In this document: in pieces, positions 14,029 through 21,984 of the stretch
Layout: each line of letters opens with the position of its first letter
Position numbering within the stretch: position 1 is the first letter of the stretch
Assembly: GCA_045543875.1 (NCBI GenBank)
Contig: JAZPXY010000070.1
Location: forward strand, 46,402-110,401
DNA from: Bulleidia sp.
GTDB lineage: Bacteria > Bacillota_I > Bacilli_A > Erysipelotrichales > Erysipelotrichaceae
Reading direction: 5' to 3'
DNA: 64,000 nucleotides
The notes under the pieces: model-generated
Databases searched by the model: none
What the model saw: only the letters and a program-made list of their open reading frames with translations
What the model was told of the DNA's origin: nothing
Position numbers and translations under genes: made by a program

Positions 14029-14682
14029 TTAATCAGGTTCAAGAAACGCACGATAGGCCTTTTCTTCCAGATACAGCTGACGCCACTCTTCTTTTTCCTT
14101 TACTTCCTGTACGGCCTTCTCCAGACGTTCGCACAGTTCTCCTTCACATCTGCCTTCCCGCAGGTAATGAATGACCTTCCGGATTTCCGGATCCTCTGCC
14201 TCTGTTTCTTCGTGCAGGGAAACCAGCACCCCTTCAATGACCCAGTGTTCATCTTCGTCCGGACAGAGATCTTCTCCCCGCAGCACCAGCCGCATTACCG
14301 GCTGATCGCAGTGAAACGGATCGCTGCAGCATATGGTCAGGTTCAGGGTTCTGCCGTTCTTCCTGTCTTCAGCTGTCTGGCAGCCGGCCTGATAGCCGTC
14401 CTTTTTTTCTTCCTTCAGTTCGCGGATATAGTCCAGCCACAGCGTCACTTCGCCGTTTTCGGTTTCGGCCGATGCCCGGAAGGAAGGATCGGTGCGGGCA
14501 CCGTGCAGAACATCCGCCAGGCTGACCTTCATTTTCCGGATGCGGCAGATGCCGGCACCCGGAAAGAATACCTTCATCAGTTCTGACAGAAGCCAGGGAT
14601 GTTCATAGAACACCAGCGAAAAGATCATCGGGTCGCGGATATCTGCCATTTCCCATGACAGATCTGACTGCATTTTGTTCAT
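14029..14682 (-). CDS. Degenerate Rpn-family / PD-(D/E)XK nuclease-like protein
   Basis: N-terminal DIRDPMIFSLVF, middle LTICCSDPF and C-terminal IHYLREG...RLEKAVQEVKEKEEWRQLY resemble Firmicute Rpn-family proteins. No RLDV or IEMQ catalytic motif. AAGGAG SD 8 nt before 14682. Confidence 0.55.
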   Translation of the reverse strand: MNKMQSDLSWEMADIRDPMIFSLVFYEHPWLLSELMKVFFPGAGICRIRKMKVSLADVLHGARTDPSFRASAETENGEVTLWLDYIRELKEEKKDGYQAGCQTAEDRKNGRTLNLTICCSDPFHCDQPVMRLVLRGEDLCPDEDEHWVIEGVLVSLHEETEAEDPEIRKVIHYLREGRCEGELCERLEKAVQEVKEKEEWRQLYLEEKAYRAFLEPD

Positions 14683-14723
14683 TCCAGTCTCTCCTTTCAT
14701 TTTTTATATAGAGAGACAGATGG

Positions 14724-18159: not shown

Positions 18160-18750
18160 TCAGTTGCTGTTGTTTTCTGCGGCAGGTGCTTCGCCTTCGG
18201 CCGGTGTTTCACCTTCCGCCGGGGCAGCTTCTTCACCGATCTTGAACGATACGGTATAGATATCGCCTTCCACGGCTTCGGTGCTGTCGCCTTCAGTATA
18301 GTAGTCCTGTGTCTTCAGTCCGAATTCTGTCATTTCCGGCGGTACGGCAAAAATCAGTTCGCCTGATTTCGATGAAGCTTCGCCAAGGTCATACTGGGCC
18401 GGAAGCTGTCTGTCGCTCAGCTGCGTTGTCGTATACATCGAGATCGGATAGTCATAATCCTTCTCGCCTTCACCCCAGGAAATATAGAAATCAGAATCAG
18501 ACATCGTGATTGCATTCTTGCTGTTGTTTGTGACTGTCACATCGACAACAAGAAGCTTGTAGCCGTCATGGCCAAGCATGCCGTTCATCTCATCTTCGAG
18601 TCTGGCGGTTGTTACAGTGTAATCAAAGAACATTGTGGAAATGGTGTCTCCGATTCCGCCGTTCAAAGTTTTTGCACCATCTTTGCCGCTGCATCCGGCA
18701 ATTGAAATTGCCAGCAGTCCTGCCGCAGCAGCAGTCACTAATTTTTTCAT
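18160..18750 (-). CDS. DUF4352-like lipoprotein
   Basis: MKKLVTAAAAGLLAISIAG-C lipobox; YKLLVVDVTVTNNS, DFYI and SGELIFAVP match the DUF4352 Ig-like pattern. Confidence 0.78.
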   Translation of the reverse strand: MKKLVTAAAAGLLAISIAGCSGKDGAKTLNGGIGDTISTMFFDYTVTTARLEDEMNGMLGHDGYKLLVVDVTVTNNSKNAITMSDSDFYISWGEGEKDYDYPISMYTTTQLSDRQLPAQYDLGEASSKSGELIFAVPPEMTEFGLKTQDYYTEGDSTEAVEGDIYTVSFKIGEEAAPAEGETPAEGEAPAAENNSN

Positions 18751-18826
18751 ATGATTTTCCCTCACCAATAACTGTATGATATCAAATTTCATTCATAAAC
18801 TGAATGCCTGTTTTCCGGCCTTCCGT

Positions 18827-20236
18827 TCAGCGGCTGACCGTAAACAGATAGAGCCATCCGCTCTCCGGCACAAAGATGCCGGTGCCGATCTTTCTGTCAC
18901 TGCGGTCAAAGACTTCTGCTGAAACTGCCTCGCCGTATTCATTGCGTACAAATACAACCCTGGAATATCCGGCAAACGCTGCGGTGTCCTTTCCGTCATG
19001 TTCAACGATCATGGCAGTGACCCTGCCGCTTTCATCATATTCATAGACGGCATCATCCCTGGCATCGGTATAGGATACGGTCTGCACTGCCGGCAGATCG
19101 CCGCCCGGGATCCACCGCACATCATAGACGGTATGATCGCCATAGGAGAAGTCCGCATACTGCGATGTGCGGAGCGTGCCGCTCTTGCCGGCGGTCATCT
19201 TCTGCCATTGCGATGCCTCATCATAAACCATTTCCACGGTATAGAGCACCGTGCCTTTTTCATTCAGGCAGGCAGCCTTGACCAGGTGTCCGTACATGTC
19301 CCATACCTGGCCGTCTTCACTCTGCCAGGTGCCGCCTTCAGAAATGGCCTTCAGCCGGTATTCTGTAAAGATGCTCGGCTGCAGGGCATTGGCCCGGGTC
19401 AGTGCCTCTTCGGCTTTGCCGGTACTGCCGTTCTGCAGGTGACGGTCAGCCTGCTTTTTCAGACAGATGACCATCTGTTCGGCCGAGTATGCATCATCAC
19501 GGTATTTTTCGTGATAGTCTTCATAGAAGGTATAGGCATTGACATCATCTCCGGAAAGAAGATATGCATCTGCCATGCGCAGAACTGCCTGATCGCCTTC
19601 ACCCCAGGCTGCGGCTGTCCGGAATGCCTTCACAGCGCCTTCATAATCACCGCTTTCAATCAGTGCCTCACCTTTGGCAAACTGTGAATTGGAATAGGTG
19701 CGCACGGAAATGAACACACCGATGATCAGCACCACGGCGGCGGCAATGCCGATGATGGCCCTGAGCGAAAGCCGGAAGCCTTCTTTTTTCTGCGGCTGCG
19801 GCTGCGGCGGCAGGTCAATGGCTTCGGCAATGACGCCCTCTTCCTGTTTCTTTACCAGGGTATTTGCCTTCTGCAGCAGAGCCTTGACATGGTCTTCGCT
19901 GATGCCGAGCTCTTCGGCTATGGCAGCGTTGTTCAGGTGTTCGAACGTTTTCATCAGACTGACAATACGCTCTTCATGATCCAGTTCAGCCAGATCCTTC
20001 TGCAGATCGCGGATTTCCGGCAGTTCCTGGACATTTTCCTGCGGTTCCGGCACATCTTCAAAAAGCTCGCGGTCACGCTGCTGAATATACATGACACTCA
20101 GCCGTCTTGCCGTTTTCACAGGATCGCTGTCAGCGGCTGCCTCCCGGGCAATTTCCCGGGCCTTGGCGGCATTGCCGGTATAGCCTTCTGCCAGATCCTT
20201 CAGAAACTGTTCACTGTTTTTATTGAATTCCGTCAT
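18827..20236 (-). CDS. Membrane protein: ECF-sigma-like N-terminus, TM helix, TPR repeats and YD-like repeats
   Basis: LAELDHEERIVSLMKTFEHLNNAAIAEELGISEDHVKALLQKA resembles sigma region 4; TM AIIGIAAAVVLIIGVFISV; TPR-like GEALIESGDYEGAVKAFRTA; YD-like YEYDESGRVT. AAGGTG SD 6 nt before 20236. Confidence 0.65.
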   Translation of the reverse strand: MTEFNKNSEQFLKDLAEGYTGNAAKAREIAREAAADSDPVKTARRLSVMYIQQRDRELFEDVPEPQENVQELPEIRDLQKDLAELDHEERIVSLMKTFEHLNNAAIAEELGISEDHVKALLQKANTLVKKQEEGVIAEAIDLPPQPQPQKKEGFRLSLRAIIGIAAAVVLIIGVFISVRTYSNSQFAKGEALIESGDYEGAVKAFRTAAAWGEGDQAVLRMADAYLLSGDDVNAYTFYEDYHEKYRDDAYSAEQMVICLKKQADRHLQNGSTGKAEEALTRANALQPSIFTEYRLKAISEGGTWQSEDGQVWDMYGHLVKAACLNEKGTVLYTVEMVYDEASQWQKMTAGKSGTLRTSQYADFSYGDHTVYDVRWIPGGDLPAVQTVSYTDARDDAVYEYDESGRVTAMIVEHDGKDTAAFAGYSRVVFVRNEYGEAVSAEVFDRSDRKIGTGIFVPESGWLYLFTVSR

Positions 20237-20248
20237 TCCGTTCACCTT

Positions 20249-20283
20249 AAAAAAAGATGCTTTTCAGCATCTTCATTTTAGCA
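20249..20283 (-). promoter_or_regulatory. Terminator-like hairpin overlapped by an extended -10 element
   Basis: Minus strand TGCTAAAAT (20275-20283), then GAAGATGC-TGAAAA-GCATCTTTTTTT. Confidence 0.45.
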
Positions 20284-21195
20284 TTATTCTTCGCCGTACA
20301 GTACCTTAGTAACATCGATCGTTGCTCGGCCGAGGGTAATGCGGTCGCCGGCATGGAGAACAGCTCTGCCAAGCGGCGGCAGCTTCGTCGTGTTCAGGAA
20401 GGTTCCGTTATGTTCGGAAACATCCTCGATATACAGCTGGCTTCCGGAAGCAGTGATCTTGGCATGTCTTCTGGATACGGCCGGTTCGGCAATGACCAGG
20501 TCACAGGTTCCGGCATCTCTGCCCAGCATGCACGGCAGCTGGTTCAGGGAATATTCACGGACATTATTGCCGATGACAACGGCAACTTCCAGACCGGTCG
20601 GAATCGGACCGTCAGCAACAACCGGCTCCTCTGCCGGTGCTTCGGCAAAGACATCATCATCTGCCGGCATATCATCCGGACGTTCAATGACTCTTGTGAC
20701 AGCCGGTTCAGGCTCCTGTTCTTCGCTGATTGAAATCGGAATGCCGGCCAGTACATCTTCGTCGGCCGCATCGATATCTTCTTCCTCAGTCTCCGGTGCT
20801 GGCGCCGGTGCCGGTACATCTTCGGCCTCCGGGAGTTCTACCGGTGTTTCTTCGGCAGCTTCTTCAGGTCCTTCCGGGAAAACCGGCAGGGAGAATTCAT
20901 CACCGAAGGAATCTTCACTGACCGGAACATCAGCAGCTGTGGCAGATGTTGCCGTCACGATTGGCTCAGCAGCCGGAACTTCGGCCGGTGCTTCGGTTTC
21001 TTCTTTCTTGTTTTTGCTGAAGCTGAACAGCTTCTTCTTCGGCGGCGGCGGTACTTCAACACCGCTGTCGTCTACATAATAAACATTTCTTTTGACGGCC
21101 AGAAATATAACTGCAAGCAGCAGTACGGCACAGATGCCGACCAGTGCATAGATAATCAGCTTATCGATTTCCGGATCATTCAGCATATTAAGCAT
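20284..21195 (-). CDS. Membrane-anchored FHA-domain protein with a long acidic Pro/Ala/Glu linker
   Basis: N-terminal TM LIIYALVGICAVLLLAVIFLAV; C-terminal FHA motifs LGR, VSRRHA, NGTFLN and GDRITLG. GAGGTG SD 6 nt before 21195. Confidence 0.88.
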   Translation of the reverse strand: MLNMLNDPEIDKLIIYALVGICAVLLLAVIFLAVKRNVYYVDDSGVEVPPPPKKKLFSFSKNKKEETEAPAEVPAAEPIVTATSATAADVPVSEDSFGDEFSLPVFPEGPEEAAEETPVELPEAEDVPAPAPAPETEEEDIDAADEDVLAGIPISISEEQEPEPAVTRVIERPDDMPADDDVFAEAPAEEPVVADGPIPTGLEVAVVIGNNVREYSLNQLPCMLGRDAGTCDLVIAEPAVSRRHAKITASGSQLYIEDVSEHNGTFLNTTKLPPLGRAVLHAGDRITLGRATIDVTKVLYGEE

Positions 21196-21249
21196 AGTGT
21201 TCACCTCAAATCATATCCATTCTACACTGAAAAGCCTGTTTGTGCCATA

Positions 21250-21984
21250 TCAGTATATTCTGCGGTCATATTTTGATGCCCGGCGGATCGTAAAGATGAC
21301 CATGATGTCCATCACTGCGACAAATCCATAGAAGAATGCCAGGGAAGCCGGTGTTCCGACCATGATTGATCCGTCGTAAATGGCATGCAGGGCAGATGCC
21401 AGCACAAAGCCGGCCGTCTGCAGCAGATTCACTTTCGATTCATCACCGCGGTTTTCACAGCCTTTTGCCATACCGTACATCAGTCCCATATAGACGGCAA
21501 AGCTCATATGGGCAGGAATTGCCAGCAGGGCCCGCGGCACTGCCACTTCCAGACCGCCGTAATAAAAGACATACAGAATGTTCTCAAAGGCGGCAAAGCC
21601 CAGTGATACAAAGACGGCATATACGATTCCGTCAAAGCGGTAGTTGAAGGCTGGATGATTCCAGCTGAAGCGGCGCAGGAAGAAGAACTTCGTGATTTCC
21701 TCGATGACTGCCACCGATGCTGCTGTCAGCACCCCGAAGCCGGCAACCGAAAGGGTCGTATGCTCGGCATAGATGGTCAGCAGATAGTCGGAGCCGTATT
21801 CCAGAGCCATCGATGCCAGCGCCGCCAGCACACCGCCGAACAGCAGCTTTGCCAGCAGGCGTCCCGGTTCTCTTTCCACTTTGTCCTTGCGGTAGATATA
21901 GAACATCAGCACTGCGGCCGGCAGTACTGCCGCAGCCGTGTACAGAAGCAGATTGTTCGGGACAGGATAGCGCAGTATGTTCAT
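21250..21984 (-). CDS. prsW: PrsW-family glutamic intramembrane protease
   Basis: VIEEITKF, DGIVYA, GFAAFENILY, AHM and HAIYD motifs; about 7 TM helices. Starts 2 nt after the rsmI stop. Confidence 0.92.
   Translation of the reverse strand: MNILRYPVPNNLLLYTAAAVLPAAVLMFYIYRKDKVEREPGRLLAKLLFGGVLAALASMALEYGSDYLLTIYAEHTTLSVAGFGVLTAASVAVIEEITKFFFLRRFSWNHPAFNYRFDGIVYAVFVSLGFAAFENILYVFYYGGLEVAVPRALLAIPAHMSFAVYMGLMYGMAKGCENRGDESKVNLLQTAGFVLASALHAIYDGSIMVGTPASLAFFYGFVAVMDIMVIFTIRRASKYDRRIY

Follow-up and report, generated by a model that had tools for sequence, protein, structure and literature searches.

A membrane-anchored protein with a degenerate ECF sigma-like domain and a TPR/YD ectodomain in Erysipelotrichaceae

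The target gene in the window (the whole 64,000-nt stretch of DNA analysed) encodes a membrane protein whose compact cytoplasmic module descends from an ECF sigma factor, has diverged strongly from it and consists of a truncated sigma-2 and a sigma-4. Our preferred reading, to which we give a probability of about 0.5 on the basis of sequence comparison and structure models, is that the protein is a membrane-anchored pseudo-sigma that would dock a partner by protein–protein contact and would not act as a working or releasable sigma factor. It is probably such a docking protein, and not a transcription factor, because the residues that grip RNAP and read the promoter have been lost. The module would then be a putative protein-docking domain comparable to the PhyR sigma-like domain, and the binding state of the ectodomain would decide whether the module holds or releases a cytoplasmic partner. 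ECF sigmas fused to membrane sensors are already known, as is one soluble sigma mimic, PhyR; new here is a conserved ECF fold lacking the polymerase- and promoter-binding residues and linked across the membrane with a TPR/YD ectodomain.

The target gene starts at an ATG at position 20236, preceded by an AAGGTGA Shine-Dalgarno sequence, and the position of this start is common to all homologues (Table 1). A hydropathy scan revealed one transmembrane segment in all 21 members examined, and the 15 residues before this segment contain on average 5.0 Lys and Arg residues compared with 2.1 after it; therefore, the N-terminus lies inside, which settles the topology check proposed with an earlier reading made from the sequence alone (the sequence-only reading). 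The Pro/Gln linker, the basic KKEGFR patch and the one transmembrane helix described in that reading are likewise all present. The target is accordingly a type-II (N-in) single-pass membrane protein with a cytoplasmic sigma-like part and an envelope-facing TPR and YD part. In a full-length AF2 model built from eight close sequences, in which the sigma-like part has low confidence, one long helix crosses the membrane and is followed by seven TPR-like helices (residues 181–299) and by beta hairpins (residues 303–465).

Table 1 Features of the target gene, its protein and its neighbours, in positions of the window
Feature	Residues	Position	Strand	Evidence or remark
Target gene, 469-aa single-pass membrane protein		18827..20236	(-)	stop codon 18827-18829
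ECF sigma-2 remnant, three helices	9-54	20075..20212	(-)	hhalign, column counts, AF2, Foldseek
Ordered non-helical linker	55-77	20006..20074	(-)	AF2 model: packed with confidence
Sigma region-4-like HTH	78-131	19844..20005	(-)	Pfam, NCBIfam, charge comparison
Pro/Gln linker and basic juxtamembrane patch (KKEGFRLSLR)	132-157	19766..19843	(-)	
Single transmembrane helix	158-180	19697..19765	(-)	N-terminus inside
TPR-like array, extracytoplasmic, seven helices	181-299	19340..19696	(-)	Pfam, PDB profiles, AF2, Foldseek
YD/Rhs-repeat-type beta-hairpin domain, extracytoplasmic	300-469	18830..19339	(-)	Pfam, AF2, Foldseek
Upstream neighbour, membrane-anchored, C-terminal FHA domain (FhaB/FipA-like)		20284..21204	(-)	Pfam, NCBIfam
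PrsW-family intramembrane protease, two genes upstream		21250..21984	(-)	Pfam, NCBIfam
Downstream neighbour, DUF4352 lipoprotein		18160..18792	(-)	Pfam; lipobox IAGC
Terminator-like hairpin AAGAUGCU-GNAA-AGCAUCUU and U-tract		20247..20274	(-)	between FHA gene and target
Shine-Dalgarno AAGGTGA of target		20242-20248	(-)	after hairpin

Several Pfam TPR models match residues 184–250, with TPR_14 above its cut-off, and both PDB profile matches and Foldseek (TM ~0.65 to TPR structures) describe an array of about 3.5 helix pairs, slightly more than the two to three pairs that had been read from the sequence. The YD-like beta repeats seen at the same time are also present: RHS_repeat matches the window protein weakly (residues 386–409, E 0.01) and 7 of 21 relatives with a best E of 2.2e-6. 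Foldseek comparison of the beta part with Rhs shells gave weak matches (E ~1e-3, probability 0.4–0.5). The hairpins span only ~170 residues, and the target contained no match to an Rhs core or a C-terminal toxin domain. Within the YD domain, a C-terminal G-x-G-x-x-V-P-x-x-G-W-L-Y motif is conserved.

The cytoplasmic module matches sigma factor profiles mainly through its second half. Residues 82–124 match Pfam Sigma70_r4_2 with an E of 5e-5 and 23.3 bits, slightly below the cut-off of 25.7, and this model matches 19 of 21 relatives (best E 1.3e-7), in agreement with the region-4 pattern noticed earlier at residues ~80–125. The NCBIfam ECF model TIGR02937 scored 33.8 bits against a cut-off of 42.9 and aligned over positions 85–162 of 165 only, so that the segment matched in the target is the linker and region 4, corresponding to the C-terminal half of the model; in a genome scan, the target reached 37.2 bits over the same model positions, 85–162. 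No HMM match to Sigma70_r2 was obtained in the target or in 21 relatives. We then compared two profiles, one covering the N-terminal regions of 31 family members and the other 20 ECF sigmas, local sequences encoded within the same genus and order. The resulting hhalign alignment placed residues 10–129 collinear with ECF positions 15–157 (probability 98.2%, E 3.7e-14), its sigma 2.3/2.4 part being of low confidence. When residues 1–62 were aligned alone, residues 10–33 fell at the same place, on the sigma 2.1/2.2 helix pair, with a P of 0.002, compared with a P of 0.02 for the reversed control.

Structure prediction pointed in the same direction. The AF2 model of residues 1–135, made with a 12-sequence N-terminal alignment, reached a pLDDT of 91.9 and a pTM of 0.85 and shows a compact domain in which three helices are joined by an ordered linker to a four-helix sigma-4. 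Submitted to Foldseek, this model retrieved full-length ECF sigmas, and its best PDB matches comprised ECF sigmas and PhyR sigma-like domains and nothing else. Compact partner-bound forms had the highest TM-scores (EcfG–NepR 0.61, SigG1 0.59, SigW–RsiW 0.57 and PhyR-SL–NepR 0.53), whereas RNAP-bound open sigma forms gave a TM of ~0.4; the sigma-4 domains superpose on the model at an rmsd of 1.1–1.8 Å. The proposal of a shrunken region 2 at residues ~12–50 is thus supported by the collinear hhalign alignment, the confident AF2 model and the ECF and PhyR structural matches taken together. The sigma-2 remnant keeps the invariant A16, the Y19-T20-G21-N22 turn, A26 and I29, and the structural positions N22, A26, I29 and E32 are common to the family and the ECFs. 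Family-wide, A16 and E88-E89-R90-I91 are invariant and T20, L58-F59 and L121-Q122 nearly so; the YEERI-type motif of region 4 reads HEERI in the window protein. Compared with five orthologues, the module gave dN/dS values of 0.13–0.30, rough figures because dS is saturated, and the ectodomain gave similar ones. The sigma-like module is therefore under purifying selection and is not decaying.

What this conserved fold has lost are the hallmarks by which a sigma factor works. The acidic motif of region 2.2 is required for contact with β′ (PMC8999054). At the corresponding DAED columns, 20 of 20 ECFs carry two or three acidic residues and none carries a basic one, whereas no more than one acidic residue occurs in 27 of 31 family members, and Lys or Arg occurs at least once in 23 of 31; the equivalent residues of the window protein are K25-A26-R27-E28. 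According to the hhalign alignment, sigma-2 also lacks its first helix and ~12 residues between the second and third helices. In ECF sigmas of known structure, the flipped −10 base is accommodated in a pocket formed by this segment. Similar losses were found in the recognition helix of sigma-4, where an Arg present in 17 of 20 ECFs is replaced in the family by S/N/Q/D, a second R/K (15 of 20 ECFs) by Y/F and a terminal K/R (20 of 20 ECFs) by H/P/Y/N, so that the helix contains on average 2.0 Lys and Arg residues in the family compared with 4.7 in the ECFs. The sigma-4 segment carries a net charge of −3.6 in the family (−7 to 0) and +3.1 in the ECFs (1 to 6), and the two ranges do not overlap (Mann–Whitney p 2e-9). 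The stretch between sigma-4 and the transmembrane helix is a Pro/Gln/Lys linker of ~25 aa, in which no anti-sigma domain was found in the target or the 21 members (no zf-HC2, FecR or RsgI match). Judged by its residues, the module lacks both the acidic patch for the β′ clamp helices and the conserved basic −35 residues. Classification of the target as a sigma factor is not warranted because its ECF score falls short of the threshold and both the DAED patch and the −35 residues are missing. Alignment and model together suggest a degenerate sigma-like domain of the kind found in PhyR-type mimics.

The family is rare and essentially confined to one genus of Erysipelotrichaceae. A word-indexed search returned only eight clusters of 54–82% identity, none with a name, and a profile search run exhaustively against 1.84 billion representatives returned 19 proteins at E <= 1e-30; a homologue search with a wide alignment was dominated by TPR proteins and brought almost no additions. 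Strong matches occurred in 14 of the 401 genomes sampled from the order, all from one genus, and two further genera in this sample gave marginal, partial matches only. Four named loci were reached through a close alignment, with records from uncultured rumen or gut Erysipelotrichaceae and a Solobacterium sp. MAG. Most relatives are longer than the window protein (510–625 aa) and have more YD repeats, and 13 of 21 members carry an N-terminal zinc ribbon (Zn_Ribbon_1) that is absent from the window subfamily. The cytoplasmic part thus varies, from the sigma-like module alone in the window clade to a zinc ribbon followed by the sigma-like module in most relatives. One relative (G342) has only the zinc ribbon in the cytoplasm and no sigma-like module, and another (G080) has no cytoplasmic domain and begins at the transmembrane helix, and both keep the TM–TPR–YD part, which is the constant core of the family. 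Because these two relatives keep the ectodomain without the sigma-like part, the ectodomain probably has a role of its own. Three of 21 members weakly match the Pfam model PhyR_sigma-like, and no receiver domain was found in any of the 21 members examined.

The target is embedded in a conserved gene order, holB–PSP1–rsmI–(PrsW)–FHA–target–(DUF4352), found in 11 of 12 loci down to a target identity of ~25%; all 12 loci are from one genus, and one has the target elsewhere. The FHA gene lies directly upstream in 11 of the 12, and PrsW is found two genes upstream in 7 and is missing from 5. Examination of eight same-genus genomes without the target revealed the FHA gene at the same place in six and PrsW in five, with an M16 peptidase gene directly after the FHA gene. 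The rsmI–(PrsW)–FHA backbone is therefore older than the target gene, and because it is present without the target and all loci come from one genus, adjacency to PrsW and FHA is weak evidence of joint function. A regulated-proteolysis module made of PrsW, the FHA protein and the target was considered and rejected as a line of evidence, since the backbone occurs without the target, PrsW is lacking in 5 of the 12 loci and one locus has the target elsewhere. The FHA gene and the target are separated by a terminator-like hairpin with a GNRA-type loop (−13 kcal/mol, z −3.2), ~10 nt before the Shine-Dalgarno sequence. The hairpin shows no variation among six orthologues in whose coding DNA the silent sites have reached saturation. 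As the target starts directly after this conserved hairpin, there is no room for an ECF-type autoregulated promoter. Elsewhere in the genome are genes for an M50 site-2 protease and for a single Hanks kinase, as in most Bacillota. No resident ECF close to the module was found in its own genome, where the best score was 22.5 bits, through sigma-4 only; the idea that the module mimics a resident ECF was rejected on this ground.

These observations have to be weighed against an alternative, close to the sequence-only reading, in which the protein is a functional one-piece regulator: the ectodomain would sense a signal, and the sigma-like domain, working as an atypical sigma or as an activator that binds the −35 box, would switch on transcription once released by site-1/site-2 proteolysis (the IutY and ECF52 model) or while bound to the membrane (the ToxR-type model). 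We consider this unlikely, although the retention of the ECF fold and the region-4 HTH under purifying selection is what it would predict, tethered ECF sigmas released by proteolysis are already known (PMC8999054) and the same genome has an apparently complete tethered ECF. Release is mechanistically possible because the genome encodes the M50 site-2 protease, and PrsW, where present in the seven loci, offers a second protease; however, PrsW and FHA are equally placed in genomes without the target, and five loci have no PrsW. The recognition helix, with Q122 and a retained K/R, could speak for DNA contact, but it has lost the −35 arginines, and in all members the HTH segment is acidic or at best neutral. 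The loss of the DAED core-binding patch, the shortened sigma-2, the two relatives without the module and the hairpin that leaves no space for an autoregulated promoter weigh against a sigma output as well. The expectation that the output acts after proteolytic release is consequently not supported by the sequence. The more general claim that sensor and sigma-like output are combined in one polypeptide holds for the architecture, which includes no anti-sigma domain, but not for a working sigma output, and the evidence leaves more room for the fallback offered with it, a −35-binding regulator or an RNAP decoy, than for a released sigma. Loss of canonical residues is in itself no proof of loss of function, because ECF43 sigmas also lack DAED and yet are activated by phosphorylation (PMC8999054).

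A rather improbable alternative places the function on the other side of the membrane, with the ectodomain as the working core, an envelope TPR/YD scaffold or ligand binder, and the sigma-like piece as an accessory that might contact the FHA protein and the Hanks kinase, for example through phospho-Thr20 in the YTGN turn, or might be a leftover of a fusion. This would fit the swapping or absence of the cytoplasmic module among relatives that always keep TM–TPR–YD, the FHA gene adjoining in 11 of 12 loci with its pThr-binding residues intact (GR...SRRH...NG), the single Hanks kinase of the genome and the presence of T20 in 28 of 31 members. A leftover is contradicted by the module itself, which evolves as slowly as the ectodomain. 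Docking of the FHA neighbour at Thr20 is not supported either: the residue sits at a helix cap in the confident AF2 model, not in a disordered segment, and is missing from 3 of 31 members, while the FHA gene is also there in genomes without the target, all loci are from one genus, and the adjacency is perhaps historical. The docking pseudo-sigma accounts for the lost hallmarks, the purifying selection, the compact partner-bound structural matches and the dispensability of the module in the two relatives. Against it stand the recognition helix, which retains one or two Lys/Arg together with Q122 and possibly touches DNA, and the absence from the genome of an ECF closely similar to the module; in addition, the juxtamembrane linker of the long relatives, which is rich in Lys, could contribute DNA affinity without specificity.

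Docking of a partner by the module, if it occurs, would represent a new path by which envelope signals reach the transcription machinery in Bacillota. In its most specific form, which we regard as speculative and improbable, the protein would be a membrane-spanning analogue of PhyR: an ectodomain ligand would alter the exposure of the pseudo-sigma, which would capture or release either a protein resembling an anti-sigma or a part of RNAP, for instance the beta-flap, and an outside signal would thereby reach a true sigma without phosphorylation or proteolysis. The finding has limited practical reach, as the family has few members and belongs to one genus of mostly uncultured rumen and gut Erysipelotrichaceae. 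For annotation, the case is a caution that a 'sigma-70 region 4' match in a membrane protein need not denote a transcription factor.

Among the known systems nearest to the target are the tethered ECF sigmas, the sigma/anti-sigma hybrids IutY (ECF243) and SCO4117 (ECF52) (PMC8999054, PMC7826278), which share with the target an N-terminal cytoplasmic ECF-fold module, a single membrane-crossing polypeptide and a sensor-like outer domain. IutY and SCO4117 have a complete sigma-2 and sigma-4 and, before the membrane, an anti-sigma domain (FecR-like or zinc-finger), whereas the target has a truncated sigma-2, neither DAED nor the −35 arginines, no anti-sigma domain, and TPR and YD repeats as its ectodomain. 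The ToxR/TcpP/CadC regulators (PMC10269533) similarly combine an N-terminal cytoplasmic HTH, one transmembrane helix and an outer domain, but their DNA-binding domains are of the winged-helix OmpR type or otherwise basic (PMC10269533), in contrast to the sigma-4-derived HTH of the target with its acidic surface and few basic residues; ToxR-like DNA binding by the target is disfavoured by the predicted charge of sigma-4. With ECF43 sigmas such as EcfP (PMC8999054), the target shares the absence of the DAED acidic patch of sigma 2.2. ECF43 sigmas are inactive until phosphorylated, EcfP having Ser/Thr at the DAED positions that are phosphorylated by an adjacent kinase (PMC8999054), whereas the target family has A/K/E/R at these columns and no adjacent kinase gene; an EcfP-like phospho-switch was rejected, as the family has no Ser/Thr there. 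A likeness in fold is seen with the SL domain of PhyR from the alphaproteobacterial general stress response (PDB 2lfw, 4qic; TM 0.47–0.53), a degenerate ECF fold that is no longer a sigma and has become a protein-binding mimic. PhyR is soluble, is controlled by a fused receiver domain and has NepR as its partner, whereas the target has no receiver and its module is tethered through the membrane to an ectodomain.

A second membrane-tethered sigma is encoded elsewhere in the source genome of the window. This protein matched positions 3–162 of the ECF model TIGR02937 at 44.5 bits, above the model's cut-off, and because the match runs over almost the whole length of the model, the protein appears to be a complete ECF; Sigma70_r4_2 is matched too. 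The remainder comprises a long Pro/Glu-rich linker, a single TM helix and, on the outside, an SH3_3 domain. The protein has the look of a true tethered ECF in a single piece, lacking an anti-sigma domain.

Two relatives of the target retain TM-TPR-YD and have no sigma-like part: the cytoplasmic part of one (genome G342) is a zinc ribbon only, and the cytoplasmic domain of the other (genome G080) is wholly absent. The next gene in G080 encodes a zinc-ribbon, acidic-linker, multi-TM protein.

The 35-nt intergenic stretch upstream of the target carries a hairpin and is invariant across six orthologous loci, despite saturated silent sites in the flanking genes, except for the second loop base (A/C/U), so that a GNRA-type loop is kept. 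The long relatives with a zinc ribbon lack this hairpin. It may serve as a conserved terminator or attenuator; alternatively, a protein or an RNA may bind there. Elsewhere in the window, a 223-aa ORF overlaps the mutL start region.

Coordinates of the features
Feature	Position	Strand	Remarks
Hairpin AAGAUGCU-GNAA-AGCAUCUU plus U-tract	window 20247-20274	-	within the intergenic stretch
PrsW and FHA genes	window 20284-21984	-	backbone also at loci L085-L092
ORF between mutL and pepD	window 14029-14700	-	223 aa
Second tethered sigma	L002:1116-2525 (G000:C40:25115-26524)	-	469 aa; outside window; TIGR02937, Sigma70_r4_2
Relatives without sigma-like part	L029:7871-9241; L030:7734-8870	- (both)	TM-TPR-YD kept

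The zinc ribbon in the N-terminal 25 residues of the long relatives P0010–P0030 has its closest PDB match in the ribbon of ArnA (5a8i) from Sulfolobus, in which a zinc ribbon is combined with FHA; the likeness probably reflects only a common ribbon type. The rsmI-(PrsW)-FHA-membrane-protein backbone is common to the genus, including genomes lacking the target. The FHA protein, with an N-terminal TM helix, a long acidic/Pro linker and a C-terminal FHA domain with intact pThr-binding residues, resembles mycobacterial FhaB/FipA.
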